Positions 299 through 20,095 of a DNA stretch of 64,000 bases are shown piece by piece. Numbering within the stretch: position 1 is the stretch's first letter; every line of letters starts with the position of its first letter. The DNA lies in assembly GCA_965226795.1 (NCBI GenBank), contig CBDDDZ010000005.1, positions 736,001 through 800,000 on the forward strand. Direction: 5' to 3'. Made by a program: the position numbers and the translations under genes. Source of the stretch: Candidatus Latescibacterota bacterium (lineage in GTDB: Bacteria > Latescibacterota > UBA2968 > GCA-2709665). The notes under the pieces were generated by a model. That model was not told the origin of the DNA, ran no database searches, and was given only the letters and a program-made list of their open reading frames with translations.

Positions 299-1036
299 TT
301 ATGCCACCGGCGTGAGATCCTGGATGTCGCATCGAAAAACCCACGTGCCCTCTCTTACGTAGTGTATGGCGAACGCCAGGCGGGGCCTGCCGATGGACCG
401 GTTTGCGTACGAGCCGTGGATGGTTCCGCCGGTAAAGTAGACCCCCGACCCACGCGGTACCGTAAGAAAGGTGAGTTCGTCCGGGCGCGCGCCGGTGACT
501 TCGTGGGAGTGCATGGTTTCGGACCACTCTTTTCCGTCGGGTCCGCGCATGGCATAATCTTTCACCCACGAGGCGTGTTCACCGCTGTCTTCGGGGGGGC
601 GGGTTTTCCGGAGCGGGGCCAGGTGGCTGCCGGCGGCGACGCAGAGACCGCCGTTGTTTCTGTCGGTGTCGCTCAGTGCGAGCCAGCAGGCCATGAGGGT
701 ACCGGGTTCGTTCCGGATATAGTGGGCGTCCTGGTGCAGCGCGATGCCGGTGCCGCCTCTCGGCGCTTTCGCCATGTACATGGTTTGAACGATCATTGGC
801 GGCCCACCCAGCAGTTGGGTCGCGATGCCCGTAACGCGAGGGTGCGACGCCAGATAGCGCCACTGCGGGTCCGCAGTGTGTCTGCGCAGGCCGAGTTCCA
901 GGATTTTCGGAGGCTTCGGCTCTGCCTCCTCTTCCAGGAAGGTGTCGATTTCACGCCCGGTCAACTGGTTCGGAACCTGGATGAATCCGTTTGTTCGATA
1001 CGCTGCCATCTGTCCGGGTGTCAGTGCGAGTTCCAT
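299..1036 (-). CDS. Phytanoyl-CoA dioxygenase (PhyH) family Fe(II)/2OG oxygenase
   Basis: YRTNGFI start, LHQD and IHGS facial-triad motifs, NGGLCVAAGSH; start taken at MELALTPGQ. Confidence 0.85.
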   Translation of the reverse strand: MELALTPGQMAAYRTNGFIQVPNQLTGREIDTFLEEEAEPKPPKILELGLRRHTADPQWRYLASHPRVTGIATQLLGGPPMIVQTMYMAKAPRGGTGIALHQDAHYIRNEPGTLMACWLALSDTDRNNGGLCVAAGSHLAPLRKTRPPEDSGEHASWVKDYAMRGPDGKEWSETMHSHEVTGARPDELTFLTVPRGSGVYFTGGTIHGSYANRSIGRPRLAFAIHYVREGTWVFRCDIQDLTPVA

Positions 1037-1049
1037 CTCGGCTTCCGCT

Positions 1050-2000
1050 TCAAGCGAGGTCGTATGGATTGGACCAGGCCTTGGTGCCGTCCGTTCCGAT
1101 GACTTCGAAACGTGCCCAGCGCGCGCCGGGACGCAGCTTGAAGGTGGCACTTGTAAATGGATTCCCGGATTCTCTGTATTCGGTACCGAAGGTATCGCAA
1201 ATGGCAAGGATACACCGGGATTCGGAACATTCCACAGTGGCCTCCACGGCCCCCGGCTCACCCATGGTCTTGCGCAGGCTGATGCTGCGAATTCTCGCGC
1301 CCGTGCTCGAATAGCTCGCACCCTTTGCGAGCGCTTCGACAATGTCCCGCGGGGAGCGGTCTTTCACGCACGCCATCGTCCAGCCCCCGTAGGTATCGCG
1401 ATTGTCGGATTCGAGGGCGTGGGAATCGTCGTTGGCCAGTGCGGGATACAGCCTGCTTTCCAGGTCCATCCAATCGTCCCAGTGAACGCCGGATTCGCCC
1501 CGTCCTGCGCATCGGCAGGTCGTGTTGAACACCTCCACGCCGGCCAGTCCCGTCAGGGGCAGGGTGTCGCGGAGTATGTTGACCGAGCTCCAGTAAGGGT
1601 GGGCCAGCCACGTGCTGCCGCCCTGGTCCTGCACGGCGTCGATAACGTGCTGGGGGGGCATGTTCTCCGAGTCCAAATCTTCGTGGATGTTCAGACAGAG
1701 AAAATGGTGTTTCTGACCTCCGAACGGGTTGTCCGGATGCAGTTCTGCGCCCTGAATGAGTACAAAATCCTCAGGACAGTCCACGGAATCGATCCGGGTG
1801 ATTCTGCGATGGTCCGAAAGGCAGAGATAGTCGTATCCCTGGTTGACATAACCATCCAGGCGCTCCTGGGGCGACGCCCTGCCGTCGGAGTTCGTCGTGT
1901 GGGAGTGTAGGTTGCCCTTCAGCCAGAAATATCCGTCTTCGGCCTTAAGGCTGAAGGGATCGACAAGGTTGTGACGCGGCGGGTATTGAGCCATGGACAT
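1050..2000 (-). CDS. PHP-domain (CehA/McbA-like) metallohydrolase
   Basis: KGNLHSHTTNSDG, LSDH, AHPYWS, NDDSH and AWSNP motifs. Confidence 0.85.
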   Translation of the reverse strand: MSMAQYPPRHNLVDPFSLKAEDGYFWLKGNLHSHTTNSDGRASPQERLDGYVNQGYDYLCLSDHRRITRIDSVDCPEDFVLIQGAELHPDNPFGGQKHHFLCLNIHEDLDSENMPPQHVIDAVQDQGGSTWLAHPYWSSVNILRDTLPLTGLAGVEVFNTTCRCAGRGESGVHWDDWMDLESRLYPALANDDSHALESDNRDTYGGWTMACVKDRSPRDIVEALAKGASYSSTGARIRSISLRKTMGEPGAVEATVECSESRCILAICDTFGTEYRESGNPFTSATFKLRPGARWARFEVIGTDGTKAWSNPYDLA

Positions 2001-2072: not shown

Positions 2073-3245
2073 TCACCTTCGGCCGACAATTGACGGCAGA
2101 TTGGTTACCGGACATGCCCTGGCCCCCTTGACGTCGTATCCCATGTCTTTGAGGATACAACTGATCTGCGCTTCCAGCTTGAGCAGATAATCCTTCTCCT
2201 CGGCGCTCATGGCCTGGCGTGGCGGACCGACGTCGAAACCCCGCACCGCCACGCCCGTTTTAAAGCCTTCCGGGAAGTTCACTCCCAGCAGCATGAGGTT
2301 GATAAGGTCCAGTACGCGATATTGCATGTCGCGCGCGTTTTCGATTTCGCCGGCCAGGGTTTTTTCGTAGATGTCCACAATGACTTCGGGAATGATGCCG
2401 GATGTCGCGATCGTGCCTCCGCTCGCGCCCATCATGATTGAGGGACAGAGGATTTCTTCGCAGCCGACCAGGACCACGTACTCGGGGCGCTGCGCGCGCA
2501 GCCGGTGCATGGTGTTGATCAGGCGCGGCATGTCCCGGCTGGAGTCTTTGGTACCCATAATGCGTTCGAACGGCAGCAACCGTTCCATGATGTCCAATGT
2601 GAGTTCCTGCGTGAACTGGGGGATATTGTACACGAGAACGTCTAGAGGTGTCTGTCTGGCGATTTCGGCGAAGTATTCGAAAAGACTGGTATCGGATATC
2701 TTGTAATAGTAGGGGGGTACAAGCGATATGGCGTCGACGTCAATGCTGGCGTAGTATTCGCCCATCTTGAGCACGTCGCGGAGGTTTGCCTCGCTGGCGC
2801 CGGCCAGAACCGGCACCCGCCCCTGGTTGACGTTCGTGACAACCCGCACCACCTCTTTGCGTTCGTCGCTGGACAGGCGCACGAATTCGCCCGTGCTGCC
2901 ATTCGGATACAACCCGTGGATGCCGGCCTCGATGAGCCAGTTAACGTAGCGCTCCATCTCTCCGTAGTTGATGCGGTCGTTGCCGTCGAAGATGACGATG
3001 TTGGGGCAGAAGATGCCCTTGAATTCCCTTCTTGCACCTGCGTTTCGATGGCGGAACGGCACCGAGGTCCGCAGACCGGCGGGTGCGGCCTCGTTCCTCG
3101 TCACCTCCACGCGGTTGGCCGCCAGGTAATCCAGCGCCAACGGAGTCAGCTTTGCCCGCGGGCAGATTTCGACCTCGCGCTGCGTGCCCAGTTTATCCTT
3201 GAGCAGCTGTTCGGTAACGACCGGATCGTCAATGCGGATCATCAA
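2073..3245 (-). CDS. Dihydrodipicolinate synthase (DapA/NAL) family aldolase with N- and C-terminal extensions
   Basis: GSTGE, PPYYY, YNIPQF and GTKDSS (Schiff-base Lys); about 70 extra N-terminal residues. Confidence 0.88.
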   Translation of the reverse strand: MMIRIDDPVVTEQLLKDKLGTQREVEICPRAKLTPLALDYLAANRVEVTRNEAAPAGLRTSVPFRHRNAGARREFKGIFCPNIVIFDGNDRINYGEMERYVNWLIEAGIHGLYPNGSTGEFVRLSSDERKEVVRVVTNVNQGRVPVLAGASEANLRDVLKMGEYYASIDVDAISLVPPYYYKISDTSLFEYFAEIARQTPLDVLVYNIPQFTQELTLDIMERLLPFERIMGTKDSSRDMPRLINTMHRLRAQRPEYVVLVGCEEILCPSIMMGASGGTIATSGIIPEVIVDIYEKTLAGEIENARDMQYRVLDLINLMLLGVNFPEGFKTGVAVRGFDVGPPRQAMSAEEKDYLLKLEAQISCILKDMGYDVKGARACPVTNLPSIVGRR

Positions 3246-3281: not shown

Positions 3282-4442
3282 TCAGTGAATCAGCCGCTCT
3301 TCCAGTGCCGGAATGGGGTTGGGTATGAGATGGGCGGATACCAGCTCCCCATATTTCTCTGCTTCCATCGCGCCGACTCTCAGCGCCGTGCCAACCGCGC
3401 CGACGTCTCCCCGGATTACGCTGGCCGTGAGAAAGTACCCCACCTTGTACCGTCCCTCGTATTCCACGTCGGCGGATTTCAACATCTGATCCATGGCTTT
3501 GACCAGGGCCACGGTGCTGCGGGTTTCGATCAGGCCCATCGCCAGGTTTCCGCTCGCGGGTCTCCCGGTGTCGCTGCCGCCAAAACAGGCCAGGATTTCG
3601 GAAGATGGACGGGAAACAACGCACGACGCATTCAGTTCCCCGGCTTCCTGAGCGCCGTCGACGCCGGCCTGGACGGCTGCCTGGACCGCGTCAAGGGTAC
3701 CCTTCACCAGCGCGTCTACCCGTCCTCCTCCGGCAATGGCGAGGCGCACGAGGCCAACGTCAGCCGCTTTGACCATCGCGTCGCAGCCGCCGACCGCACA
3801 CGCATAGCCGGTCGTCTCAAGAACACCCAGCGCGCCGACGTCGATCTCCGGCCCGTTCGATATCGGTGTATAGGGAAGCAGTGGCGCGATGCCCTCTTCG
3901 GGGCTCGGAATGTCCAGGGCGGCGTAGACCTCTCCGACCTCACCCGCGCACGCTTTACCGGCCTGGACGGCGGTCCGGACCGACGATATATCGCCCCTTA
4001 CCATAAGATGAACCAGTGCGCCGCCGATGGATGCCCAGCCGGCGACGTGGACGGGCGCGCTTTTGATCATGGCGTCCGCGCCCCGGATGAGGGGCGCCAT
4101 GCCGCGGGTTTCGAGGATACCCACCGCCAGGGGTCCGACCGGCCTCGCCGCGGTTGCACCCGTCCTGTGGGGCATGGATTCCAGGGCACGCGCGTCGGGA
4201 CCCGGGATGACGTTGGCAGTGATCAGGTCGCCGTGATTCGCGGCCTCGGTTCTGCCTATTCCGACGGCGGCTTCGACGTCCGAAACGGACCCTTCAATGA
4301 CAACGGTCACCCAACCGGAACCCACGCCGTGTCGTCCAAGAACCCTGACGTCAACGGTCTTCAGCATGGCGTCGAGGGCCGCAATGAGCGCGGTCATGCC
4401 GCGGGTTTCCAGAATCCCCAGGGCATGATTTCGTGCGTTCAC
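3282..4442 (-). CDS. Microcompartment shell protein with four tandem BMC (Pfam00936-type) domains
   Basis: Four repeats of ALG(I/V/L)xET-G...DxMxK...GDV..V..AV..G, starting ALGILETRG, AVGILETRG, ALGVLETTG and AMGLIETRS. Confidence 0.92.
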   Translation of the reverse strand: MNARNHALGILETRGMTALIAALDAMLKTVDVRVLGRHGVGSGWVTVVIEGSVSDVEAAVGIGRTEAANHGDLITANVIPGPDARALESMPHRTGATAARPVGPLAVGILETRGMAPLIRGADAMIKSAPVHVAGWASIGGALVHLMVRGDISSVRTAVQAGKACAGEVGEVYAALDIPSPEEGIAPLLPYTPISNGPEIDVGALGVLETTGYACAVGGCDAMVKAADVGLVRLAIAGGGRVDALVKGTLDAVQAAVQAGVDGAQEAGELNASCVVSRPSSEILACFGGSDTGRPASGNLAMGLIETRSTVALVKAMDQMLKSADVEYEGRYKVGYFLTASVIRGDVGAVGTALRVGAMEAEKYGELVSAHLIPNPIPALEERLIH

Positions 4443-4451
4443 GGCAGCCCC

Positions 4452-5009
4452 TCAGGGGCCGAATGCCCGGAGGACTTCGGGCAAGGGTTGGGGAATCAGC
4501 GCGTCACAGAGGAAATTTTCCCCGGCTTCAACGCTCGCGCGTCCCACGGGCAGTGCTTCGCCCACGGAGGCTACATCGCCCAGAATAAGGGAGCAGACCA
4601 CCCGGTTGTGAACGGTGAGCACGTTATAGATCCGGACGTCGGCCGCTTTGACCATGTGGTCGTTGGCGGTGATGTGGGCGCCATATCCCCTGGTCTCGAT
4701 CAGACCCAGTGCACCGGACGCTGTCCGCCGTCCATGCGCTCCTGCATTAGAGACGTATTCCCGACAGATGGGTTCGGGTTGTGTCATTGGCGCCACCACC
4801 ACGTGGCTCACGACCTCTCTGGCCGCTTTTTCACCGCTCTTTAGCGCCGTATCGACCCTGCTTATGGATCCGCCCAGGAAAACGGTGGTGAATCCGCCGA
4901 TGGATTCCCAACCCAGGAGATCCACGCCGGCGGCTTTACAGGCGGCATCCGCCGCAAGAATAATGCCGGCGACGCCTTCGACTTCGATCATGCCGATTGC
5001 GGCTGACAT
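4452..5009 (-). CDS. Microcompartment shell protein with two tandem BMC domains
   Basis: AIGMIEVEG...ADAACKAAGV and ALGLIETRG...DHMVKAADV repeats. Confidence 0.92.
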   Translation of the reverse strand: MSAAIGMIEVEGVAGIILAADAACKAAGVDLLGWESIGGFTTVFLGGSISRVDTALKSGEKAAREVVSHVVVAPMTQPEPICREYVSNAGAHGRRTASGALGLIETRGYGAHITANDHMVKAADVRIYNVLTVHNRVVCSLILGDVASVGEALPVGRASVEAGENFLCDALIPQPLPEVLRAFGP

Positions 5010-5462: not shown

Positions 5463-7883
5463 TCAGAACAACAGTACCGAAACGGCTTTCTGGATCATGG
5501 CAATGGAGACGGAGGCCATACCCACGAGGGACATTCCCACCGAAAATCCGACGTAGAGCACCGCGGCATAAAGGCGCCACTGCTGTCTGCCGAATCGCTT
5601 CCAGAAATAGTACCGCGCCAGGAGTGCACCGATGATCTCGGTGATGAGGAGGTGCGGAATGCTGGTCAGGCTCCGTATGTACCCGAAAATGAGCAGTATG
5701 GGCAGGCCGAAGACGGACAGAGCCACGAACGAGATCAGGCCGACGCCGAGTCCGATGAAGATAACCTTTTTCTTGAGGGCCTCGTACAGGATCGGCACGT
5801 CGTCCGAACTCTGAAGGTAAGAACCGTCGAAGGACGGTACCTGGTCCACTTCGAACTGGTATACCAATTCCCGATCCTGCGGGTCCCGGGCTTCGAGAAC
5901 GACCATGTTGGGATTGGGGTTGTCCGCGTGGCTTTCGTCTGAAGGACTTCGCAACACGGGCGCCGAAGGCAGCCCTTGCCGCAGAGCATCGGAAATGTCC
6001 GGTTCCGCCCGGTCCACCGGGAGCGGAGGCGTGAGAGGCCGGGTGGCGTCCTCGAAGTTCGTATAAAAGTACCCCACGCGGGACCAGGGCCCGTAGGCGC
6101 GTTGTTCGTGATCTTCGATGTCAACGTCGGCCGAGGTGCGTGCCCGCCAGTACCACCAGTTGCCGTCGGGCAGATTGCTGGGCTGGAAGGACACGGTTCC
6201 GGATGACGTGTCGGTCTCCACCTCGCCCTGCATGGTGGCGGTGTACCAGACACTGCTCTGCAGCGCCCGAAGCGGCCACATCAGCTGGACGTAGGGGTAG
6301 GAGGCCGAGGGAATAGGCGCCAGCTTCCAGATGTAGGACCAGTACATGAAACTGGTGAACAGCACGAGAGGCACCATGAAATATTCTGCTTTCAGGATCC
6401 CGGTGAATTTCGTTCCCGTGAGTTCGATCTGGCGGAACCGTTCCGCCTCGGCTCCCCAGTTGTGGAGGGGGAACGGCACAAACCAGATCTCGATGCCTTT
6501 AAAGCCGCTCAGGAAGATGGTGGCTTCCCTGATATACGGGATATTGACATTCTGTCCGACCAGGCCGTCCAGACGGGCGTTGACGAAGGAGATCAGCGGG
6601 GTGTAGACAAACGCGAAGATGAAAAAGAAGGCGAGAAGAACCTTTCCAACCAGGTCGGGAAAGAGAATCTTGGCCAGGATGATGGTGTACAGGCTGGCAA
6701 TACAGAAAAGGACGATGCAGATCCAGATACGGAAATCGCCCCGTCCGGGCGGCGGCGTCCAGCTTCCCTTTTCCTTCTTTTCCAGCCGGGCGGTCCGAAC
6801 CCCTGTCCAGACCTGGTAGAATCCGATAATTGCGATGGAGACGGTGATGCCGATGCCGAAGCTCATCCAGAAATCGATGCCCGTAACGAAGTGGGTCATG
6901 ATGGTATCCATTCCCATGAACCAGTGGGGCATGTATCCGTGCTGGTACAGGATGGGGCTGGCCACGGTGTGGATGACGACGCCGATGAATGCGCCCATGA
7001 CGGCCCAGAATGGCGCCAGAAGGCCGGCGAAGATGGGCGCCAGGTGGAGCGTGAATCCCAGCGGCGTGGCCTCCAGGAAATACCCCGTATACTGGGTGAA
7101 ATCCACCCATGGGATGGGGATGAGTTGAAGCGGGTTTTCCATGAACGCGCCGGTAATGGCGGGCACGGCCACGTAAATGGCCCCCCACACCACGCCGATC
7201 ACGGCGCCGATGCTGAAGACGCGCCAGCGCCATCCGTATTGGCCACTGCTTTCTTCCGCAAGCGCCATGGCGCCCTGTGCGTTGATGGGCGCGAACGGGA
7301 AAGGCAGGCGTTCGTAGTCCGAGGTGATGCGGAAGAGCACGTAACTGGCGGTGAACCACTGGATGCGTGCCATGATCATTCCCAGGACGAGCAGGGAGAT
7401 GGGCAGGAGCCAGTCCGCGTGCAGAAAGGTGCGGTCGATCAGGGCGGGAGAGTCGGGCGGGGGCGCCCACCAGCGGGGGATGAGGTGCGAGATGCCGAAC
7501 TGTTTGGCGGCGGGTGACTGAACGTAGTACTGGTGCCAGAGCAGGCCCTCGAATGCGCCGGTTTCTCGGGCAACCAGGGCGCTGGTGACATAAAAGAGAA
7601 GGTAAAGCTCCTGCTTTTTCAGCACGGTGAACGAGCGCTTGGCCAGTTCCAGAAACAGAATGATCGTTACCCACTGGGCAGCCGAGCCAACGGACTGACC
7701 CACCATCAGTTCCAGATAGATGTTGCCCGGAACCATAATTATGGAGACGAAGAGCGCGCCGAGAATGGTCTTGGAGTTGAAGCCCTCTTCGAATTCCTTG
7801 GGGACTTCAAGGAGATCCCGGTATTCTTCGATTTCCTGGAACGGATTGGTTTTGCGCTTGCGAAAGAGGTTCGATAACGCCAT
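5463..7883 (-). CDS. OPT-like oligopeptide transporter family membrane protein with an inserted soluble domain
   Basis: Many TM segments, ERLPFPFAP motif, hydrophilic insertion of about 150 aa near the C-terminus. Confidence 0.7.
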   Translation of the reverse strand: MALSNLFRKRKTNPFQEIEEYRDLLEVPKEFEEGFNSKTILGALFVSIIMVPGNIYLELMVGQSVGSAAQWVTIILFLELAKRSFTVLKKQELYLLFYVTSALVARETGAFEGLLWHQYYVQSPAAKQFGISHLIPRWWAPPPDSPALIDRTFLHADWLLPISLLVLGMIMARIQWFTASYVLFRITSDYERLPFPFAPINAQGAMALAEESSGQYGWRWRVFSIGAVIGVVWGAIYVAVPAITGAFMENPLQLIPIPWVDFTQYTGYFLEATPLGFTLHLAPIFAGLLAPFWAVMGAFIGVVIHTVASPILYQHGYMPHWFMGMDTIMTHFVTGIDFWMSFGIGITVSIAIIGFYQVWTGVRTARLEKKEKGSWTPPPGRGDFRIWICIVLFCIASLYTIILAKILFPDLVGKVLLAFFFIFAFVYTPLISFVNARLDGLVGQNVNIPYIREATIFLSGFKGIEIWFVPFPLHNWGAEAERFRQIELTGTKFTGILKAEYFMVPLVLFTSFMYWSYIWKLAPIPSASYPYVQLMWPLRALQSSVWYTATMQGEVETDTSSGTVSFQPSNLPDGNWWYWRARTSADVDIEDHEQRAYGPWSRVGYFYTNFEDATRPLTPPLPVDRAEPDISDALRQGLPSAPVLRSPSDESHADNPNPNMVVLEARDPQDRELVYQFEVDQVPSFDGSYLQSSDDVPILYEALKKKVIFIGLGVGLISFVALSVFGLPILLIFGYIRSLTSIPHLLITEIIGALLARYYFWKRFGRQQWRLYAAVLYVGFSVGMSLVGMASVSIAMIQKAVSVLLF

Positions 7884-8010
7884 GGAATTCTATCGAGATG
7901 TGAGGGTTAGCGGGCTGGGAAAAATACAAATAAAGAGGGAATTTGCAAAGACAATTTCCGGATTGCGATATCTATATCCCAAACGCGTCCTGTCTATGCC
8001 GCATCTTTTT

Positions 8011-11000
8011 TCATGTGGTTTTCGCCCCCTGTTCGTCGGAGACGAGTATTCGCATGCCTTTTTCCCGGTAAGCCGCTTTCTCGGCAGGATCGACAGTCCG
8101 CCAGATGAGAAACTGTTTTCGCAGGGTATTCATGAACCCCTGGTTGACCCTTCGCCAGGAGGCGACTTCGCCGGAGCGGCGCCTGAGTGAGAGTGTCAGG
8201 GTGTAGATGTCGAAATTGCCGGTGGGTTCGGCCTCGAAACGAAGCTCCTGGCTCACGCCCAGATCGAATGGCGCCAGCCATAGGGTCGTGTGGATGACGT
8301 ACCCCTTTTTGTCCGCGCTACCCTTTCCGTAAAGATGGGCCCCGTCCGTATAAAAAGCCCCCATGGCTTCGCCACTGTGGGATTGGAAGTAATCGGCGAG
8401 AAAGACGCATAGCCCGAATACCTCATTGCCGCCGACCGTAAATGGGAATTCGAACCGCCAATCGTCGCCTTCCGGCTCTGGAAGTTTCCACCTGCGGGAC
8501 ACGTCCGGTACGGCCATCAGGGAGGCCTGCCGGGCCGGATAGATGGTGGACAGGATGACAACGGCCATTACCAGGACGGACGCGGCCACCGCGGAGCGGG
8601 CGGAGTAGTTTAACGTGACGCCCGAGAGCAGGTCCTGCCAGAGCAGCAGTTTGGCAACGCCCTGGCCCATCAGGTAGCCGCTCACCGTGCCGAGGACGGC
8701 GTAGACGCAAGCTTCGGCAATAAACAGAAAGGCGATATGGACGGGAGCCAGCCCCACCGCGGAATAGACGCCGATTTCCCGAAATCGCTCGTAAACCGAT
8801 CCCATCATGGTATTCAGTACGATGAGTGAGGCAATGAGGATTGGGATGAACAGATTACTCAGCCCCCGTACCGAGGTGTCGCCGAGCGAACTGAAGACGG
8901 AGACCCTGATACGCCCGTCCGCGTCCGGAAGGCCGGCAAACAGGACAACGGAGAGCCTGGACAGCAGTTCTTTGACGTACGCCCCCACGTTTGCGCCGGC
9001 TTCAAAGCGCAGAGCAACCGATTGGAGCGGGCTGCCCACCTGACGCAGGAACTTGTAGGGTACGATCATGATATCGTCCGGGTTGATGTGCTCAAAGGGC
9101 ATGATTTCAACTTCCGGTTGTTCGAGACCCTGTTTTTCTCGCGTTTCCTGGGTGGTCATCTGTTCGATGGCTTCCTCGTCCGTAAGTTTGAAATCCGCGG
9201 GACTGAGCGGTTCTTCGTCCAGGTCCTTCAGCCGATTGAACGCGCCGGCGTCGATCAGGCCGATAACCGGCAGCGATTCGCCGAAAATCCGGACTCGGGT
9301 CGCCTCCGGGCGGCCGGCGTCGACGCCGAGGAGGTCCGCTATCTTTTCGGGCAGGATGCAGGCGGTTTCGCCCGGACGGAACCAGCGCCCGGACTTGAGT
9401 GTGCGATGGACTCCGGTTACGTCCGCCTCCTGGGGCGTCATTCCCAGGACGCCAAGCACGTGCGTCGAGCGGGCTGCGGACTTTACGGGGATGATCTTCT
9501 TCTCCCGCGTGTAGTACCAACTCCGGGGGGCCGCTATGGCGGATTCCCCGAAGTGGGTGACGGCGTAATCGTAGACGACATCTTCCAGCGGGCCCCAGAA
9601 CTTGCTGCGGATGAGTATTCCTGGATACGGACCCTCGGTGTCTTTGGGAATCCGGTGGAATTCGAGAGCCGATTTGATGGACGTGAACGAGAGAACCGTG
9701 AACGTGAGCAGCAGGAGCGTCGTGAACGTAAGCGCCGTGCGCAGTTTACGGCGTTTCATGTTCGCAATGCCGAGTTGGAAAGCGGCCATGGATGCGGAGA
9801 TTCTACCGACGTCGGTTTCGTGCAGCAGCACTTCCGGGACCCGTATCCGGCGCATGGTTTCGTTGAAGCGCTTAAATACCAGGGAGATGACAAACGCGGC
9901 AAGCGCGAGAATGACAAAGGCGAGCAGCACAACCACAGGATTGGAGATCTCGAATGCCGGGTGGACATTCGATAAAAAAAGCCAGATGAGCAAAAAGATA
10001 CCAACGAATCCTGCGATCTGTCTTCGGATATCCACGGCGCTGAAGATGAGGCGTTCGGCGAAAAACGCGCATGGGATGACCAGGGCCATGAAGAAAACGA
10101 TGCCACGCACCACGTCGTTCTGGGTGTCTTTGACGTCCGGGTAGGCACGGGATTCGATGCCCAGCGCCGCGCGGGTGTGTTTCATGAAAACATCCCAGCG
10201 CTTTTCCGACATGGCGTCTTCGGCCATTTCCAGGTGGTGGCCGGCCTGGCTGTGCAGCAGGTTCAGACGCTGGTTTTCAATGGCGTATTTCTGCATTTCC
10301 TGTTTTCGGGCTTCGTTCAGGATCCACATGTCTCTGGCGGCCAGAAATGAGGTGCGCGCAAGGGCGCCGTGGGTGAGGGTGGGGTAGCCCCGGCCGCGGG
10401 CGATTTCCTCGCTCTGTGCGCTTTCGGCATTCAGCAACAGGTAGCGGATGCCTATGTCGCCTGAGCCCGCTGTGATATCGCCGCCGCGCATGGCGACTTT
10501 GACCCTCTCGCCCGGGCGCGTGAACAGGGTGCCGACGGGTTCCGTCGGCCCGAATCCGATGGCATACCCGTATTCCTGCGGCGTGATATTACCGCTTCCG
10601 TAAACGCTGATCTGAGAGAGTTTGGTAAGGTAACGCGGATCGACGGTATCGTAAAAATCCGTGGCGACGCAGGGAAACAGAATGATATTTCGTTTGGAAA
10701 TCCACCAGTTCATATCGAAATCGCCCCGGTAGATACGCGCTTGCTGTCCGAAGTTTGGTGCGTAGGTGATCTCGCCGGTCTCGGGATCCAGAAAGTAGGC
10801 GCTGACGGAAACGCGGCGTTCGGCAACGCCGGGCATGTAGAATTCGCCGTTCTCGTCGGTCAGGTCGTAATAGATGCGCCGAACGCCCTTGACTGATTTG
10901 TCGATACCCATTCGGAGCGCGGCGATGGCGCCCTTCTTGGGGCGGTCGGGTACGATGCTGCGCCTTGGAAAGGTCCGCACGAATCCCTTAAGGCCGCGCA

Positions 11001-12546
11001 TGCGGTCGTCCGGGTTGAGCCGATGGTCAGGGATGAGCGTGGGGTCGTTCAGGGCAATGTCGAGCACGCCGGTAATCAGTCTGATCTGTTTGGCGAGATT
11101 TTCAAAGTTGACCCCTTCGGGCCGGTCCAGCGGCGTATCGAAGCGAAAACGGGCATCGTTCAACGTAACCAGGGACAGCGCGAGCGTGCCTGCTTCGAGA
11201 ACCACTTCGCCATCGGTCTTCAGGTTAACGCCGGGAATATACATGTCCCAGGTCATTCCACCCGTGGGATTGATTCCGTCCATCAGTGCCTGATCGGGGT
11301 CCAGCCCGAACGCAGGTGCGATTGCATGCGAGATGCGGACGAATTTCTTGCCGAACGGTGTGAAGAACCGGTTGTAGTAGAAGTTGCGCGTGCTGTTCCA
11401 GACACCTATCTGGGCCGTCTGGCTCGAGAGGTCCAGTCCGATGAAGAGACGAATGTCGATGGGATCGGTCATCAGGGCCGCGAAATGCCTTTCTTTTCTG
11501 GCGTGGCGGCCCAGGAAATCGCAGATGCCGCGAAAGCCCAGGTGGTGAGCCGAGGTGGCCAGAAAGAGTAGCGTGCGCGCGGTGGGATATCGCTGGAAGT
11601 AATTGACCAGTTCAAGCAGTGCGACGGCGCCGCTGGCCATCTCGGCGCCGGGGGCCAGGGCGGGAACCACGGACATGGCGTCGTAGTACGCGTTGATCAC
11701 GACGATCTGGTCCCTGAGGCCCGGATCCGTGCCAGGCAGAAAGCCCAGAATATTGTGGGCGGTGTGTTTTTCCCACTCCATTCTCGCCTTCAGTTCAATT
11801 TCGAGTTCGCCGTGCAGGGCAAGCAGACGTTTGAGCGCCCGGCCGGACTGTCTGTCGATCCAGAATCGTTCCACGCTGTTAGGAACCTGCAGGAATTTCT
11901 GTTCGGCTTCGGTATAAAACGTGGAATCCGGTTCGATGAAAATAACCTGTTCCGCCCCCAGCGTGGCCGCGTTCAGCCAGTGGTTCCGTGTGTTGAATTC
12001 CATCAGGACGGCCGCGCCCTCGAGCGTGTGTCCGTTGAAGTCGGAAAATTCACCATTTGCCCCGTAGATCAGGCGAGTGCGAACCCCTTCACGCGGCAGT
12101 GTGGAGGTCTTGACCAGGTTCGGCCAGACGGCGTGGATGGGATACGAAGTGCCGTCGCGCACGAGGGTCAGGCTGCCGCCCTTGTCGATAGGTGCGGTCA
12201 CGTCGAATGGCTCGGAACGTACGTCCTTAAGGCCGGCGCGTTCGAAACTTCGCCGGATGTAATCGGCGGCAACTGCATGGCCGGTATATCCGGGAACGCG
12301 CGATCCGTGACCCGTAAAGCGGGCCATGTGGGCGCGTACGCCGTCAGACGAGACGGTATCCAGGACGCGGACCGATGTCTTTCCCGCTCCCGGGACGGGC
12401 CTGGGCGGCGAGGGTCGGGGTGCCTTCAGACCCAGTATGGCGGCAAGGTAGGGGTTGACGCGTTCCGGGCCCACAGCCATGCAGAAGAAAGCAGTAGCGG
12501 TGAGCAGGAGCGTAAGCACGAGTCCGATGCGTCGGCGGCTATTCAT
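8011..12546 (-). CDS. M28-peptidase-like/PA domain fused to an FtsX/MacB-like ABC permease (ORF extends to 12615)
   Basis: N-terminal TM, SRVPGYTG, NILGFLPG, INAYYD (M28 fold); RRKLRTALT and ERFREIGVYSAVG...FIAEA (FtsX). Confidence 0.8.
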   Translation of the reverse strand: MNSRRRIGLVLTLLLTATAFFCMAVGPERVNPYLAAILGLKAPRPSPPRPVPGAGKTSVRVLDTVSSDGVRAHMARFTGHGSRVPGYTGHAVAADYIRRSFERAGLKDVRSEPFDVTAPIDKGGSLTLVRDGTSYPIHAVWPNLVKTSTLPREGVRTRLIYGANGEFSDFNGHTLEGAAVLMEFNTRNHWLNAATLGAEQVIFIEPDSTFYTEAEQKFLQVPNSVERFWIDRQSGRALKRLLALHGELEIELKARMEWEKHTAHNILGFLPGTDPGLRDQIVVINAYYDAMSVVPALAPGAEMASGAVALLELVNYFQRYPTARTLLFLATSAHHLGFRGICDFLGRHARKERHFAALMTDPIDIRLFIGLDLSSQTAQIGVWNSTRNFYYNRFFTPFGKKFVRISHAIAPAFGLDPDQALMDGINPTGGMTWDMYIPGVNLKTDGEVVLEAGTLALSLVTLNDARFRFDTPLDRPEGVNFENLAKQIRLITGVLDIALNDPTLIPDHRLNPDDRMRGLKGFVRTFPRRSIVPDRPKKGAIAALRMGIDKSVKGVRRIYYDLTDENGEFYMPGVAERRVSVSAYFLDPETGEITYAPNFGQQARIYRGDFDMNWWISKRNIILFPCVATDFYDTVDPRYLTKLSQISVYGSGNITPQEYGYAIGFGPTEPVGTLFTRPGERVKVAMRGGDITAGSGDIGIRYLLLNAESAQSEEIARGRGYPTLTHGALARTSFLAARDMWILNEARKQEMQKYAIENQRLNLLHSQAGHHLEMAEDAMSEKRWDVFMKHTRAALGIESRAYPDVKDTQNDVVRGIVFFMALVIPCAFFAERLIFSAVDIRRQIAGFVGIFLLIWLFLSNVHPAFEISNPVVVLLAFVILALAAFVISLVFKRFNETMRRIRVPEVLLHETDVGRISASMAAFQLGIANMKRRKLRTALTFTTLLLLTFTVLSFTSIKSALEFHRIPKDTEGPYPGILIRSKFWGPLEDVVYDYAVTHFGESAIAAPRSWYYTREKKIIPVKSAARSTHVLGVLGMTPQEADVTGVHRTLKSGRWFRPGETACILPEKIADLLGVDAGRPEATRVRIFGESLPVIGLIDAGAFNRLKDLDEEPLSPADFKLTDEEAIEQMTTQETREKQGLEQPEVEIMPFEHINPDDIMIVPYKFLRQVGSPLQSVALRFEAGANVGAYVKELLSRLSVVLFAGLPDADGRIRVSVFSSLGDTSVRGLSNLFIPILIASLIVLNTMMGSVYERFREIGVYSAVGLAPVHIAFLFIAEACVYAVLGTVSGYLMGQGVAKLLLWQDLLSGVTLNYSARSAVAASVLVMAVVILSTIYPARQASLMAVPDVSRRWKLPEPEGDDWRFEFPFTVGGNEVFGLCVFLADYFQSHSGEAMGAFYTDGAHLYGKGSADKKGYVIHTTLWLAPFDLGVSQELRFEAEPTGNFDIYTLTLSLRRRSGEVASWRRVNQGFMNTLRKQFLIWRTVDPAEKAAYREKGMRILVSDEQGAKTT

Positions 12547-12651
12547 AAGGATTGCAGGTCGGGGTTCTGTTGAACGCCCGTCGATTGAAGGTGGTGGTTT
12601 TTCGTTCCATGCCACGGCCCGGACGCGGGAGAAAGCTCCTGCTGCTGCCGA

Positions 12652-14658
12652 TCAGAACCGATGAACGCTGTGGCCGCGTTCAGGGAACCAGAGGACGTCG
12701 ATGAAGGCGGAGAGTGCAACCCCCAGTATATAACCGACGAGCAGGCCGATGAAAAGCGGGCGGGATTTTCTGTATACGGAGGGTCCGCCCATCTTCAGCA
12801 TCACCAGTTTGACAAGCCAGGCGAGGAGTACGGTCAAGCTGGTTCGCCGCGCGAGGTACGAACCGGAGATGGCCATTCCCACCGGATGCAACGGCCACCA
12901 GACGAATCGATGCCGCAGGTAAATAAGCAGGAGCGTGACCAGGCCGCCCAGGCCGAAAAACACGACATGGTCGGGGTGTTCACGGTAAACCGGCGGTTCC
13001 GGTTTCTTAGTGAGGAAATTCTTGACGGAAGTCGCGGTACCTTCGAAATGTTTGGGTCCGGCACGCACGATTTCCCACGAGTTGAAGTTGTACGCGCCGT
13101 CGCGGTATCCCAGATGGATCGTGAGCAGCACGCTGGCGACGTAACTGAACATAAAGGCCAGTCCGACGGCAAGCATGAGGTTTCGGCGGTTGCCCCGGAC
13201 GCCCTCCGCCACGCGCCCGGCGTGTGCGAGGGCGGGCAGGAAGAGCCCTTTGAAGTGGGAGGTAATCCTCGATGCGAACCGAAGCGCTACCCGCGTCTTT
13301 TCGTTGACTGCCGATCCGGCAAGGAAGGGCGCCACCAGGCCCCAGGGGCCAGCTGGTACGTTGGTGTACGGCATGCCGGTTTCGGCGAGAATCTTAGCCA
13401 TGCCGACGTAGGTGAAGATCACTGCCGGAAGGAGCAGGGCGGCCAGGAGCGGATCAAATCCGATGCGCACAAGCCAGAGCCACATATACGCGAGGCCCCC
13501 GACCAGGCCGATCAGAGCCATCCGGCAGGAGAGCGGTTCGTCCCGGTCGTCCAGGGGTACGTCATTGCGCCATGCTTTGCGAACCACGTCCCTTATATGG
13601 CGTCGGGCAACCCAGAAAACCGAGGCGGCCAGCATGACAAATGCGCCTTTTGTTTGCCAATAGTAAACGCCCCGGTAATAGTAGGGCGATATGGCCGTAA
13701 GCCCCCGGCGATGCAGCCAGCCGCCTTCGAAGATAAACAGCAGGTCGAAGAACCAGATGCTGAATAGAACGTCCAGGCTGGCGAAATAGGAGAAAAAGAT
13801 GGTGAAGAGACCGAGGAAACCATAGGCAGGCGGATGCTGCCGGTCGATCCAGTACCACCTGCCGCGATAGACCGGAAACTGCGGAAAGCCGGGAAGAAAG
13901 TAGTTGATGCAGTTCCAGGCGATCATCCCGAAGGCCAGTCCGAAACCGATCCAGAACAGATAATTTTTCGTGAAATCCGGCAGGGCGGACCTGCCGCTGC
14001 CGGGTTCTTCCGCCATGTGAATCAGGGGCGCCATGGCCGGAAACGCCAGTCGTTCGTTCTGCACCCATTGTTTGCGAAAAACCACGGCGATACAGGCCAG
14101 AACCACAAATGCCGCCACGATGAACGTGGTCCACCAGAGCAGCGGCAGCAGCCAGGCATCCCAGGGGATCTGCGCACCCTTTGGGACACCCTCGAAAAAC
14201 CAGGTGACCGCATTGTTTTCGTCTGAGGGTATAAGCCACGGATTGATATACGGATGCAGGTAGGTATTCCATTCGTTGACTTCGGTAGCGAAATAGTATG
14301 GGGTCGCCATGTAACCGAGCAGATAGCCGCTGAGACCGAAGCCGGGTATGGCGGCTCCCACAACGCCCATCGCCAGAATGGTGTGCCATTCCGCCGGTGA
14401 GAGCTTCCATCGGGAAAAACGTGCGATCGCCGCGCCGATGACGATCATCAACGTAAACACGATGAGCATGGCCATCGGGACATGGCTGTAGGTCATTAAC
14501 GAGCCATGCACGACGTACCGGACGTGGATCGCCAGGACGTCCAGTCCGACGACCAGGACCAGGCCCGAAACGACGGATCGGACCGTGACGCCGTTGGCAG
14601 TTTTGGCGCAGTTTGCGTCCGTTTCAATGGGTTCGGCTGTTCGTTCGAGGCTGGGCAT
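12652..14658 (-). CDS. DUF6785/DUF6784-like polytopic membrane protein
   Basis: RKQWVQNERLAFP, WWPLHPVG and RPLFIGLLVG motifs; many TM helices. Confidence 0.75.
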   Translation of the reverse strand: MPSLERTAEPIETDANCAKTANGVTVRSVVSGLVLVVGLDVLAIHVRYVVHGSLMTYSHVPMAMLIVFTLMIVIGAAIARFSRWKLSPAEWHTILAMGVVGAAIPGFGLSGYLLGYMATPYYFATEVNEWNTYLHPYINPWLIPSDENNAVTWFFEGVPKGAQIPWDAWLLPLLWWTTFIVAAFVVLACIAVVFRKQWVQNERLAFPAMAPLIHMAEEPGSGRSALPDFTKNYLFWIGFGLAFGMIAWNCINYFLPGFPQFPVYRGRWYWIDRQHPPAYGFLGLFTIFFSYFASLDVLFSIWFFDLLFIFEGGWLHRRGLTAISPYYYRGVYYWQTKGAFVMLAASVFWVARRHIRDVVRKAWRNDVPLDDRDEPLSCRMALIGLVGGLAYMWLWLVRIGFDPLLAALLLPAVIFTYVGMAKILAETGMPYTNVPAGPWGLVAPFLAGSAVNEKTRVALRFASRITSHFKGLFLPALAHAGRVAEGVRGNRRNLMLAVGLAFMFSYVASVLLTIHLGYRDGAYNFNSWEIVRAGPKHFEGTATSVKNFLTKKPEPPVYREHPDHVVFFGLGGLVTLLLIYLRHRFVWWPLHPVGMAISGSYLARRTSLTVLLAWLVKLVMLKMGGPSVYRKSRPLFIGLLVGYILGVALSAFIDVLWFPERGHSVHRF

Positions 14659-14743
14659 CGTTCGGAGTTCGGAATCAGAGATTGGGCAGTTTTTTCCGGG
14701 GGTTGTCAGGCCGGCCGCCACGTCGAAAGCGGATGCAAGAGTC

Positions 14744-16245: not shown

Positions 16246-18098
16246 GTGCGCCGTGAAAAGGCGCGGAACTCCAGTGGGTGAAAGTCCCACCCGACAAATG
16301 TTGCTGCAGTCGGTAGCAATCGGAGCGGGGACGTAGGTAACGACATCTCCGAAGCCTCCGGTGTAGAGGGTCGCAAGGCGACTCGGCGAGTATGCAGGCC
16401 GTAACGTGAGTGAACGCTGAGCAGGCCTCGAAAACGGTAATGCGGGAGCCGACCCGCCTGAATTACGGGGAAGGCCGCCGTCGTTGGGTAAGAAAGCAAC
16501 GGGTGCACCCAACGGTTAATGGCGACGGCATGTATACAAGGAGATCCGACGCAACACGGGAAGCCCCAACGGTGGTGGAGGGACACCAACCGGCAGCCCG
16601 CGAGGGACAGGCCGGGCGGTTTGGGGTGGCGGAGAGGCCCGTAGTACCTGCGATGCCGGGTAACGCCGGCGGAGGGAAGGGGCCTTGGTTCAAGGGCAAC
16701 GTCAAAGGAGCGAGAGCCGGGAGAGTGGCATGGGCCTAAGACCTCCGGAAAAGGTTTGGAAGCTGCAGAGGACGTTGCATGCCAAAGCGAAGGAATCGCC
16801 CGATTACCGATTCTATGCGCTGTATGACAAGGTGTATCGCGAGGACATCCTGCTTTATGCCTACCGCAGCTGCAAGGCCAACGGCGGTGCGGCGGTGGAC
16901 GGACAGACCTTTGAGGATATCGAGTCATACGGACGGGACCAGTGGTTAGGCGAACTGGCGGAAGCCGTGAGGAGCAAATCGTATCGAGCGGATCCGATTC
17001 GTCGGGTCTACATCCCCAAGGGTGACGGCAAGCAAAGACCGCTGGGGATACCGACGGTGAAGGACCGGGTGGTGCAAAGGGCAGCGATGTTGGCAATGGA
17101 GCCAATCTTTGAAGCGGACCTGCCAGCACAGCAGTATGCCTACCGCCCGAATCACGACGCCACCAGGGCGGTCCACGCCCTGGTTACGCAGGTCATCGAC
17201 GCCGACTTGAGCGGCTACTTCGACACGATTCACGCCGAGCCGGTGGCGCGGCGCATCTCAGACGGGAAGATGCTGAGTCTGATCAAGATGTGGCTGACCG
17301 CCCCGGTTGAAGAGACCGACGCGCGGGGACGGAAACGGCGAACAACGCCGAACAAGGATCAGGGAAGGGGGATACCACAAGGCGCCCCCCTCTCCCCGTT
17401 GCTGGCGAACCTGTATATGCGGCGGTTCATCCTGGGATGGCAGCTTCTGGGACATCAGCAGCGCCTGAACGCTCATATTGTCAACTACGCGGACGATTTT
17501 GTGATTTGCTGTCGCGGCACCGCACAAGAAGATGGCGTGATGCGATCCATCATGAAAGCGCTTAAGTTGACCGTCAATGAGCAGAAGACGACGCACGCTT
17601 CCAGAAGGACGATTTGACTTTCTGGGCTACACCATCGGTCGCTGTTACTCGCCAAAGACGGGCAAGGCCTATATCGGACGCGCCCGTTTGTCGGGCCATC
17701 AGCGAGGCCACAGCGCGACGGTGGTTGCTTCAAGAACGGATTGCTGAACCGAAAGCTGGTAGGCTGGGGCAACTATTTCCGTCTTGGACCGGTAAGCAAA
17801 GCCTACCGGAGTGTGGATGCCCACACCCGGCATCGGCTCCGCTGGTGGTTGTGTAACAAGCACAAGATACCGGGAAAGGGAACATCACGCTTCCCTGACG
17901 AGGTCCTCTACGATACCCTGGGCCTGACCCGGCTGGAAGTGCAGACACGCAACTTTGTCAAGAATCCTTGTCCGAGAGCCAGATCCGCAAGTCCGGTTCG
18001 ATGAGCTGGAAACAGAGCACCTATTGAGGCACCGCCAGACGAAAGGGGCGGAAACAGATAGGCCCCTCCTAAACCACCGCGCCACATCTCGACTCTAC
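16246..18098 (+). mobile_element. Group II intron (degenerate)
   Basis: 5' GTGCG, 3' CTCGACTCTAC, eroded domain V (GAGAGCC...GTCCGGTTCG, ~17974-18005), RT ORF inside. Confidence 0.9.
16730..17960 (+). pseudogene. ltrA: Group II intron reverse transcriptase/maturase, frameshifted with microdeletions
   Basis: RPLGIPTVKDR, DADLSGYFD, PQGAPLSPLLAN and YADDF motifs; FDFLGY and GWGNYF lie in other frames; 3' end approximate. Confidence 0.88.
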
Positions 18099-18452
18099 TG
18101 AATTGTCACGGATTGCAGTTTCAGGAAGCAGAAACAGGTTCCGAGTGAATCGTGAAACGGAAGGAAAACCTGTCTGTGACGGATTTGGAGTTTTCAAGCC
18201 GCTTCAGTGGCACGTGCTGGTAACACGGTAGGGCGGGGGCGTCAGGTTGACCTTTATGCCCGTGTCAAGAGCACAGACATCTGTCTGGCCTTTGGTGGTG
18301 TCGATCAAGACGTGAAGGCGGATTCAACCGGACGATGCGTTATGGAACGGACGATGCCAGATTGTAGAGGATCTTGGCATAGAGGTGTTTGAGTGGAAAC
18401 GCGGTTGGCAGATGGAACGTGATTTTGGTTTTCATCTCACAGACGCGTCCGG

Positions 18453-18482
18453 CCTGCCTGCCGAGCATCCGGCGCAGGCAGG
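18453..18482. repeat. Hairpin insertion 1 (30 nt) CCTGCCTGC-N12-GCAGGCAGG
   Basis: Exact removal restores KVAGRV in the transposase. Confidence 0.85.
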
Positions 18483-18680
18483 CGACCTTCAAGAGGCGAT
18501 TTTGCAGCGTATTATACTGGGCGTTCGTCCACTTGGTGCCGCGCAATCCCATTTCAGCCAAGGTCTGCAACAGGACATAGGCGGCGCTGTGGAGAAAGAG
18601 CCGGAAGTGATTGGCCTCGAAGGTGTGACAAGAGGTGCGATCGGAATGGAGAAAGGTCTTGTGATTCTTGATAAAGCCTT

Positions 18681-18705
18681 CCTGCCTGCCTGGCCGGCAG
18701 ACAGG
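18681..18705. repeat. Hairpin insertion 2 (25 nt) CCTGCCTGC-N7-GCAGACAGG
   Basis: Sits at the frameshift between YCGRG and EGFIKNHK; apparently accompanied by loss of a few host bases. Confidence 0.8.
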
Positions 18706-19121
18706 CCGCGTCCACAATAGACGGTTTTGTAGATGAATGAAGGGTTGGCGCGTTGCAGGTTGGTGGCCACGAAACGGATATTGTCTCCTTGCGGTGTCAC
18801 TTCCGCCTTGCAGATGATGCGGCGTGGCGAAGCCCAGGTGCTGGCCTGATAGTCCCACGCGTTATATAGGCGCACGGTTTTGCCGGAAACGGCATACAGC
18901 GCTTTGGCCTGGTCCATCAAGGGCTGTGCCCTGGGCAGCAACTTGGCATTGCCGCTTTGTCCAAGGGCAAAATACACATTCTGTGTGTCACACAACGCGT
19001 GTACTTCCGGACACGAAAAATGTGAATCGCCACGCAACAGGATCGCCACGTCGGGCCAGGCTCGACGCAGGTAGGCGATCACCCGTTTGAGAATCGAAAC
19101 GATCTCTTTGCCCGAAGGCCG

Positions 19122-19140
19122 CCTGCCTGCAGCAGGCAGG
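19122..19140. repeat. Hairpin insertion 3 (19 nt) CCTGCCTGC-A-GCAGGCAGG
   Basis: Exact removal restores the frame: LRPGVRPSGKEIVSILKRVIAYL. Confidence 0.88.
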
Positions 19141-19657
19141 CACGCCAGGACGCAAAACCGTCGTGATCAACTTGCCGGTTTGCCCTTCATAGATATGCAA
19201 CGGCTGGTAGCAATGACTCTTAAAATACGCATTGAATAACGACAACTGCCCAGAACCATACACCTTATCTTCCGTATCGTCGATATCCAGCAGGATGGCT
19301 TTGGGCGGTTTCTTATACGAGGCGATAAACCCATCGGCAAAGGCCTTCGCGATCCGATATAAGTCGCCTCTGGTGATCCGGTTCTCGAACCGACTCATCG
19401 TGGGTTGACTGGCCAGATCCGCACCGGTCAGCGGCAACCGATCACAGGCCGCCTTGAAGCCGGGGTCCCCGCGTAACGCATTGCAGTCGTTCGCATCCTC
19501 ATACCCACACGCCATCTGAAAAACACGCTGTATGACCAGGTCCGCCAATGAGTGATCCACATAACTGGGATTCCAACTATCGGTTAAGGCCTCAATGATC
19601 CGACGCAAAATGCCGTTCTTGGCCTCCACCTCACGTATCAGCATTACTCCGCTGTCG

Positions 19658-19687
19658 CCTGTCTGCGTGCGTACACGCACAGGCAGG
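19658..19687. repeat. Hairpin insertion 4 (30 nt) CCTGTCTGCGTGCGTACACGCACAGGCAGG
   Basis: Exact removal restores LTSDSG; encodes the in-frame insert LPVRVRTQTG. Confidence 0.85.
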
Positions 19688-20095
19688 CTGGTCAGAATGC
19701 CCCCGTCGAAGACGGCTTCCACCTGTTTGCCCAAAAGACTTGCGAAAGACATCCTGTGATGTTTATCTTGAACATACACGGTAGTTTCCCCCCAGTTCAT
19801 TGTTGTAAGGTTATTTGCGTAACCATAATATAATACAATGACTTGGGTAAGGAAACTACCTTTTTTGTGAATTATTCAGGCTAAGTGGCATCCGCCCGCA
19901 TTCCGGAGTCACTTTTATCATCTTCCATTTGCATGCTGGCACGGCTCGGTTGCCGGAATCCCCACTGACGGGAGTCGCGTTCGATTGTAAAAGCGTTTCG
20001 TCCCTGTACGGGGCTGGGTAGGTCCGATTGCAGCGTCACAACACGGCGGCCGAAAATCGGTTGAAATTCCGGTTGGACGCCAGGAGGTGTCGGCT

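Follow-up and report, generated by a model that had tools for sequence, protein, structure and literature searches.

Two adjacent genes in the window, the 64,000-nt stretch of Latescibacterota DNA that was analysed, encode a two-domain (B) and a four-domain (A) BMC shell protein, and modelling indicates that B and A probably form an asymmetric 1:1 tile of 2+4 domains. The initial annotation had proposed such a tile as a shell-protein class not yet described. The pairing is supported by the co-occurrence of the two genes, by closure of the ring in a complex model and by a domain pattern around the ring, (C1-C2-D)x2, while its novelty is reduced by earlier descriptions of the proteins. The tile classes of the standard scheme (BMC-H, Hp, Ts, Tsp and Tdp) are six- or three-fold symmetric.

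Genes, domains and conserved positions

Gene B (4452..5009, minus strand) starts with ATG and encodes a protein of 185 aa belonging to the Ts_hazel clade of Sutter 2021. Gene A (3282..4442, minus strand) starts with GTG and encodes a protein of 386 aa, the "large H_blurple" quadruple fusion. The sequence between them is a spacer of 9 nt (4443..4451, minus strand), and an RBS-like site, GAGGGG, overlaps the B stop codon and lies 6 nt ahead of the GTG of A; A may be translationally coupled to B and co-translated with it. A promoter scan upstream of B returned two weak sigma-70-like sites, and the number found (4, against 1.6 +/- 1.2 expected) was not significant.

Pfam places four PF00936 stretches in A (252 bits) and two in B (114.5 bits). 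When single domains were scored separately, all six (55-76.5 bits) exceeded the cut-off of 24.5 bits. Relatives of this genome carry a two-domain BMC protein, C (domains C1 and C2), and a one-domain BMC protein, D, and the six domains can be typed by their likeness to these. In ring order, and all on the minus strand, they are: B1 (4791..5000; 66.2 bits), C1-type, with the pore loop W-E-S-I-G-G-F; B2 (4485..4712; 55 bits), C2-type, with T-V-H-N-R and invariant Y109 and R136; A1 (4197..4424; 76.5 bits), D-type, with R-H-G-V-G-S-G-W; A2 (3900..4127; 75.3 bits), C1-type, with W-A-S-I-G-G-A; A3 (3606..3833; 66.4 bits), C2-type, with I-A-G-G-G-R, invariant Y213 and R241, and the edge Arg kept; and A4 (3315..3542; 67.4 bits), D-type, with Y-K-V-G-Y-F. 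Each domain aligns to positions 1-75 or 1-73 of the PF00936 profile in canonical order, so that none is circularly permuted and the permuted types (BMC-Hp, Tsp, Tdp) were ruled out. The BMC fold is present in the predicted models of both proteins. Pairwise identity among the six domains is 27-43%, with B1 and B2 at 27%.

These results bear out the initial description of a four-domain and a two-domain gene, non-permuted and 9 nt apart: its coordinates are exact, and the domain count that it called for gave four real domains in A, not fewer, and two in B. The linkers, estimated there at about 10-15 aa, measure 10-15 residues from the last helix of one domain to the first strand of the next, and the six D-x-x-x-K motifs and six differing pore loops are as quoted. 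The statement that the Arg of the PRPH motif survives in one domain only is right for this copy (A3) but does not extend to the family, in which A1 also carries it. Family-wide, the edge Arg is found in 103/120 rows at A1 and 112/120 at A3, and in a minority at B1 (36/121), A2 (15/120) and B2 (11/121). As the (P/A)RPH edge Arg of basal BMC-H is in the majority at A1 and A3 only, A and B appear to make a specialised rather than a basal tile.

The edge Lys of the KAA(N) motif is near-invariant, occurring in at least 119/120 rows at each A position and 121/121 at each B position, suggesting that each of the six domains presents an edge to an adjacent tile. Every position also has its own conserved pore loop in the family alignment, and in a quick tree covering 182 domains, with A and B taken from 16 loci, each of the six positions forms its own group with SH-aLRT values of 90-100. 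The conserved residues include H38 (118/120), W44 (119/120), R241 (120/120), K333 (115/120) and Y336 (115/120) in A, and H134 (103/121) and R136 (121/121) in B. By homology, the basic and polar residues of the pore loops would suit an anion.

Linkage and distribution of the pair

Searches yielded 258 relatives of A, with lengths of 366-402 aa and identities of 54-100% among the 120 listed, and 237 relatives of B (181-212 aa among the 120 listed), mostly from MAGs labelled Latescibacterota or Gemmatimonadota. In a phylum set of 168 genomes, A was found in 83, B in 84 and both in 83, the A-bearing genomes being kin (3 families, 17 of 49 genera). The co-occurrence check suggested by the initial annotation was thus passed in 83/83 A-bearing genomes, and partnerless A homologs were not seen. 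B lies directly upstream of A in 82 of the 83; in the exception (G123), the contig with B ends 393 nt away from it, and a different contig carries the 3' half of A. In the single genome with B only (G095), B itself is truncated where its contig of 2,050 bp ends.

A second collection of 75 genome loci, obtained from the best 80 of 100 matches and largely overlapping the phylum set rather than independent of it, comprised 68 loci with both genes whole, 6 cut by contig ends and 1 unrelated. One candidate for A outside the lineage (L139) was rejected, as it consists of four separate single-domain genes. Among 79 metagenome loci, 14 were dropped since B was cut, frameshifted or followed by less than 150 nt, and A1 follows B in all 65 informative loci. 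Contigs from RNA libraries of three studies, one labelled sponge metagenome, also bridge B and A, which shows presence and not transcription. Wherever B was seen without A, a contig end or a frameshift was involved. Families f1 and f2, in which C and D were not found, include 18 genomes that keep A and B. B plus A is the one invariant unit of the locus. The pair is nevertheless accessory, because 63 of the BMC-P-bearing genomes (146/168) have no B by our reading of the table. B is the only two-domain BMC protein of this genome, which has 8 PF00936 domains overall.

The close spacing raises the idea that B and A are made as one six-domain chain by stop-codon read-through, or are a recently split gene. 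In this genome the two genes do share a reading frame, separated by a single TGA and 9 nt, but the frame is shared in just 7/62 pairs, all three stop codons are used, and no six-domain protein occurs among the listed or representative relatives; read-through was rejected on the frame count, and the explanation as a whole is most improbable. Six-domain fusions were absent from the 120 listed near-length matches, 5 longer matches and the top 150 representatives, a search that is weak evidence among long proteins. The sole B-A1 chimera (P0391, a single member of 411 aa) has the look of a frameshift artefact, with partial domains followed by non-BMC sequence. Four apparent natural splits of A were also considered as 2+2+2 or 2+3+1 arrangements. 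L211 (97% identical to the intact P0048, with A interrupted by a stop and lacking a new start) and L166 (a frameshift) were judged errors or pseudogenes, L180 looks frameshifted in A1, and L181 was judged from the domain map alone.

Predicted structures and ring closure

AlphaFold2 models both proteins with high confidence when alone (A, pLDDT 91.6 and pTM 0.90; B, 93.8 and 0.91). For A and B together, the complex model scored 0.75 against 0.05 for the best of three controls, these being unrelated proteins and not B3, A+2H or A+C. The mark used is passed by 116/157 solved complexes and 2/215 mismatched pairs, and is rough here as our own alignments were used. Between runs, contact agreement was at least 96% and partner pLDDT at least 88. 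In the model, B contacts A residues 8-92 and 308-365, i.e., both ends of A: the B2 helix (107-121) lies on the A1 sheet, where W44 meets G108, Y109 and R136, and the A4 helix (309-311) lies on the B1 sheet at M7, E9, E35, F40 and T42. As modelled, the ring closes in gene order, B1-B2-A1-A2-A3-A4, through these two interfaces. The complex modelling proposed by the initial annotation therefore yielded a closed 4+2 ring, and the failure to close that it had named as a refutation did not appear. However, the passing score may reflect only likeness to the well-represented solved BMC hexamers and not binding; predictors favour BMC rings, and AF2 metrics suggested a homo-hexamer for the insoluble CcmK3 (PMC12058022).

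It is unlikely that B is instead an ordinary homotrimer and that A fills its ring with two BMC-H monomers (4+1+1) or with the tandem protein C. Such an arrangement would agree with the normal trimerisation of two-domain shell proteins and the filing of B under BMC-Ts in the Sutter 2021 catalogue (PMC8217296), and with the known hetero-hexamers of BMC-H (PMC12058022). BMC-H genes are available in this genome to complete A, and the A-B linkage would also fit two separate tiles in one operon. A homotrimer of B is at odds with the finding that B was seen apart from A only where a contig ends or a frame is shifted, and with the modelled A-B contacts, which use near-invariant, position-specific residues (W44, 119/120; Y109, 121/121; T310, 112/120; T42, 119/121). 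As for C, it was not found in f1 or f2. Less likely again, though still deserving mention, is that the B1 and B2 surfaces are promiscuous, so that B3, A+B and A+2H co-occur and the 2+4 tile is one product among several. Cross-compatibility among BMC-H paralogs is broad (PMC12058022), but B1 and B2 are the most divergent of the domains (long branches, low mutual identity), as expected of specialised surfaces.

We consider it very unlikely that A makes rings by itself, with three chains filling two adjacent or stacked hexagons (4+2 / 2+4) or four domains forming a square. The arithmetic allows the former, since 12 domains from three A chains make two rings, and the A2-A3 linker, exposed and with a pLDDT of about 67 in the A model, would favour it. 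Yet this linker, at 20-22 residues over the measured span in 117/120 relatives, is as short and length-conserved as the others, A is modelled as one confident unit with hexamer-like tandem geometry, and self-assembly of A leaves the constant presence of B unexplained.

The best structural match for both proteins is the synthetic BMC-H tandem fusion 6NER (TM 0.87-0.91 for A and 0.84-0.87 for B). The A3-A4 part of the predicted model overlays on the 6NER tandem with Z 27.6 and an rmsd of 1.2 A over 177 aligned residues, and the B model shows the same handedness as A relative to 6NER. As 6NER shares the domain geometry of A and B and, according to its PDB title, builds shells, this direction of fusion is one that can do so. 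6NER is, unlike A and B, engineered and a homotrimer with two identical domains. The natural BMC-Ts homotrimers (PduT, 3N79 and 3PAC; the H. ochraceum protein, 5DIH; and 3NWG) are likewise pseudohexamers of tandem non-permuted PF00936 domains, but the predicted A and B overlay poorly on them (target-normalised TM 0.38-0.46, rmsd 15-17 A over both domains), which we read as the opposite domain order around the ring. In our reading of the models, A and B have hexamer geometry with a chain direction opposite to that of PduT. The BMC-Ts are three-fold symmetric and the modelled A+B ring is not. Only B has the two domains of a BMC-Ts, A having four, and neither predicted model shows the BMC-Ts domain arrangement. 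The PduT model scores, 93.9 and 35.9 bits, lie below the cut-off of 250.3, and the A/B pore loops contain no Cys for a PduT-like Fe-S cluster.

Origin from a C and D gene pair

C was found in 63 genomes and D in 64, both only in family f4, and D follows C in 54/54 genome loci (e.g., L078:6649-7488). Five genomes have two copies of both genes, and one metagenome locus (L183) has a copy of C without D. From the resemblance of D to A1 and A4, of C1 to A2 and, often, of C2 to A3, we predicted beforehand that B1 would match C1 and that B2 would match C2. HMM and hhalign comparisons gave the best matches A1-D, A2-C1, A3-C2, A4-D, B1-C1 and B2-C2, the best of 90 balanced assignments, and 788 of 1000 column bootstraps returned this assignment (73-99% per domain). 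By these matches the ring reads (C1-C2-D)x2. When domains within the ring were paired without the C/D reference, the same pairing was the best of 15 by hhalign but came second in a BLOSUM bootstrap (417 vs 490 of 1000). The quick tree agrees in part, with A4 joining D (91) and A3 near C2 (89), and disagrees in grouping A1 with A2 and B1 (87) and in leaving B2 on a long branch.

This pattern puts domains of like type opposite each other in the modelled ring. The tile, called fully asymmetric in the initial annotation, is so in sequence, although some pseudo-two-fold symmetry can still be traced in the ring. It also follows that both inter-chain contacts (C2-to-D and D-to-C1) have covalent copies inside A. 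A homotrimer of B, by contrast, requires a B2-to-B1 (C2-to-C1) contact, of which A contains no copy.

The 2+4 tile could have arisen by tandem duplication of a C and D gene pair, after which D'-C''-D'' would have fused into A and C' would have been left as B; this order of events is our reconstruction. C and D themselves are candidates for a (2+1)x2 hetero-tile. Separately, 14 representatives with three BMC domains (283-330 aa; P0246, P0249, P0254-P0260, P0266, P0286, P0289, P0290 and P0300), which are not A orthologs, are candidates for 3+3 tiles. As their domains do not follow the C1-C2-D order, they provide no evidence for the origin proposed here.

Genomic context

Downstream of A lies a gene for a class I aldolase of the DHDPS/NAL family (2073..3242, minus strand, likely start ATG at 3242; PF00701, 192.6 bits), a likely cargo protein. 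It reached no NCBIfam cut-off. Its nearest solved structure is 3EB2 (YagE, a KDG aldolase), and the GSTGE and GTKD motifs, which we take to be catalytic, are kept in the alignment with YagE. Its N-terminal domain of about 60 aa is common to the Cys-rich protein of MUF2 loci (match E 2e-8). The aldolase is 65-93% identical across the lineage, with an ortholog in 76 of the 83 A-bearing genomes by table count; where the aldolase occurs without A, in two genomes, it lies at a contig end. G099, G101 and G106 truly lack it after A, and as at least three genomes with A and B have lost it, the tile is not tied to the aldolase alone. Six genomes (G031-G036) of families f13 and f14 have aldolase relatives that are 48-49% identical and match only from residue ~65; these families have BMC-P genes and neither A nor B.

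The next two genes, for a PHP/CehA-like metallohydrolase (1050..2000, minus strand) and a PhyH-family dioxygenase (299..1342, minus strand, true start probably internal), each have their cluster in 15/74 loci and are genus-level neighbours; the metallohydrolase is not part of the conserved core. Upstream of B (5463-14721, minus strand) are three large membrane-protein genes of 806 aa (no Pfam match), 1534 aa (FtsX domain) and 689 aa (DUF6785/DUF6784), whose place beside B is conserved no further than the genus and close family. Elsewhere in the window, at 16685-17617, 18340-19800 and 28728-30362, a degraded-looking group II intron reverse-transcriptase-like ORF and transposase-like ORFs were recognised by eye.

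In family f4, the full locus contains, with the pair, BMC-P, AldDH, PduL, C, D, the Cys-rich protein, the class I aldolase, a ThiO/DAO-like oxidase and a second DHDPS-like protein. In the present genome B, A and the aldolase alone stay together, and another contig (C4, locus L001) carries PduL, a BMC-H, three BMC-P, an acylating AldDH, a class II aldolase, acetate kinase and an extended BMC-H. The B+A locus corresponds to a satellite-like BMC locus in the sense of Axen 2014, i.e., contiguous PF00936-only shell genes with a BMC-associated gene nearby and a full locus elsewhere (PMC4207490).

The AldDH, PTAC, pfam00596 aldolase and BMC-P triplet of MUF2 are found at L001, and the pfam00701 aldolase with the shared N-domain, the double and quadruple fusions and the C-terminally extended BMC-H are present as well. 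This genome (96% complete) departs from MUF2 in having one normal and one extended BMC-H and in that the Cys-rich protein was not found; f4 loci have the MUF2 features missing here. It is a reduced, rearranged form of MUF2.

At L001, PduL (7381-8253) has an N-terminal C-x-x-C-x-x-C stretch followed by an encapsulation-peptide-like helix, a 494-aa membrane protein with no Pfam match (8421-9905) lies between PduL and BMC-H, and the BMC-H with a C-terminal extension of ~60 aa (16583-17065, H_darkrose-like) lies ~1.7 kb past the acetate kinase gene. The Cys-rich protein of ~150-165 aa (L078:7499-7996), noted in the Sutter 2021 supplement (PMC8217296), occurs in 56/74 loci, has no Pfam or NCBIfam match and ends in an encapsulation-peptide-like helix. 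In one genome a PduT-like/PduS-like pair (L107:663-2539) lies beside the MUF2 locus.

A rhamnose mutarotase-family gene is found near some f4 loci (cluster in 19/74 loci), and a PVM-like AldDH was noted in MUF2 by Sutter 2021 (PMC8217296). Together, these point to deoxy-sugars. The substrate of the aldolase may be a 2-keto-3-deoxy acid, a class that we predict with some hesitation and whose cleavage would yield pyruvate plus an aldehyde. A hydroxyproline route via the ThiO/DAO-like oxidase and the DHDPS-like protein of f4 was also considered; no close ortholog of either was found in the present genome.

Discussion

The proteins themselves have been recorded before. "Quadruple linear fusions" and Ts_hazel are listed in MUF2 loci in supplement files 3 and 4 of Sutter 2021, and the large H_blurple and Ts_hazel of MUF2 are the same proteins as A and B. 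One A ortholog (P0118, 55% identical to A) is CME28_01110, 382 aa, which adjoins the Ts_hazel protein CME28_01115, 193 aa. The locus features are also those of MUF2 in that work: a pfam00701 aldolase with the shared N-domain, AldDH, PTAC, the BMC-P triplet and an extended BMC-H. In parts of its text and supplement, "double or quadruple" fusions are mentioned in "several organisms", "quadruple" occurs once, "hetero" is absent, and pairing, stoichiometry, ring order and origin are not given (PMC8217296). What we add is the strict A-B linkage in 83 genomes. The claim of an undescribed shell-protein class thus stands only in part: the four-domain protein was catalogued in 2021 and BMC-H hetero-hexamers are known, while no description of a fixed 2+4 tile or of its (2+1)x2 origin was found in the literature searched, which mostly left out subscription journals. 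Hetero-hexamers of BMC-H (CcmK3/K4, CcmK1/K2, PduA/PduJ) are likewise mixed rings with broken pore symmetry (PMC12058022), but they are built from separate one-domain chains in variable or alternating order, whereas here fusion would fix six distinct positions in two chains. CcmO gave the best NCBIfam score for A (243.5 bits over four domains, below the cut-off of 270), and unlike A it has two domains and a carboxysomal context; the CcmO label on A relatives at JGI is an annotation artefact.

Most likely, the two proteins are co-translated, B forming a 120-degree arc and A a 240-degree arc of a single BMC hexagon. The ring would close 1:1, the B2 helix packing against the sheet of A1 and the A4 helix against that of B1, to give a tile without true symmetry in which the six pore loops differ and six edge lysines point outward. 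The tile might serve as an accessory, minor facet of a MUF2-type metabolosome, with the bulk shell and core enzymes supplied in this genome from another contig; incorporation into the shell and the chemistry of the pore are what we infer from the above. As fusion would fix the ring order, each pore loop could be tuned separately. The tile would most likely be used to gate the passage of an anionic 2-keto-3-deoxy acid, and possibly to dock it at a single site; the neighbouring class I aldolase would split this acid into an aldehyde and pyruvate, and AldDH, PduL and acetate kinase would then consume the aldehyde.

Less likely than not, but worth stating, is the reading that MUF2 has order-fixed hetero-tiles in two grades, a (2+1)x2 form made from C and D and a derived 2+4 form with six separately selected pore loops. 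If this is true, the 2+4 form would have a pore that is chiral and unique in kind, or would dock the aldolase at a single site, and would be a natural C1-symmetric shell tile in which each position could be engineered alone. How a shell builds an asymmetric pore or a single binding site could be seen from a tile of two chains whose six positions are fixed and all different, and the role of pore asymmetry in permeability would become directly testable, loop by loop. For engineers, it would be a natural scaffold with six addressable positions. Such a tile would also give a handle on the substrate of the MUF2 organelle in sponge-associated and marine Latescibacterota.
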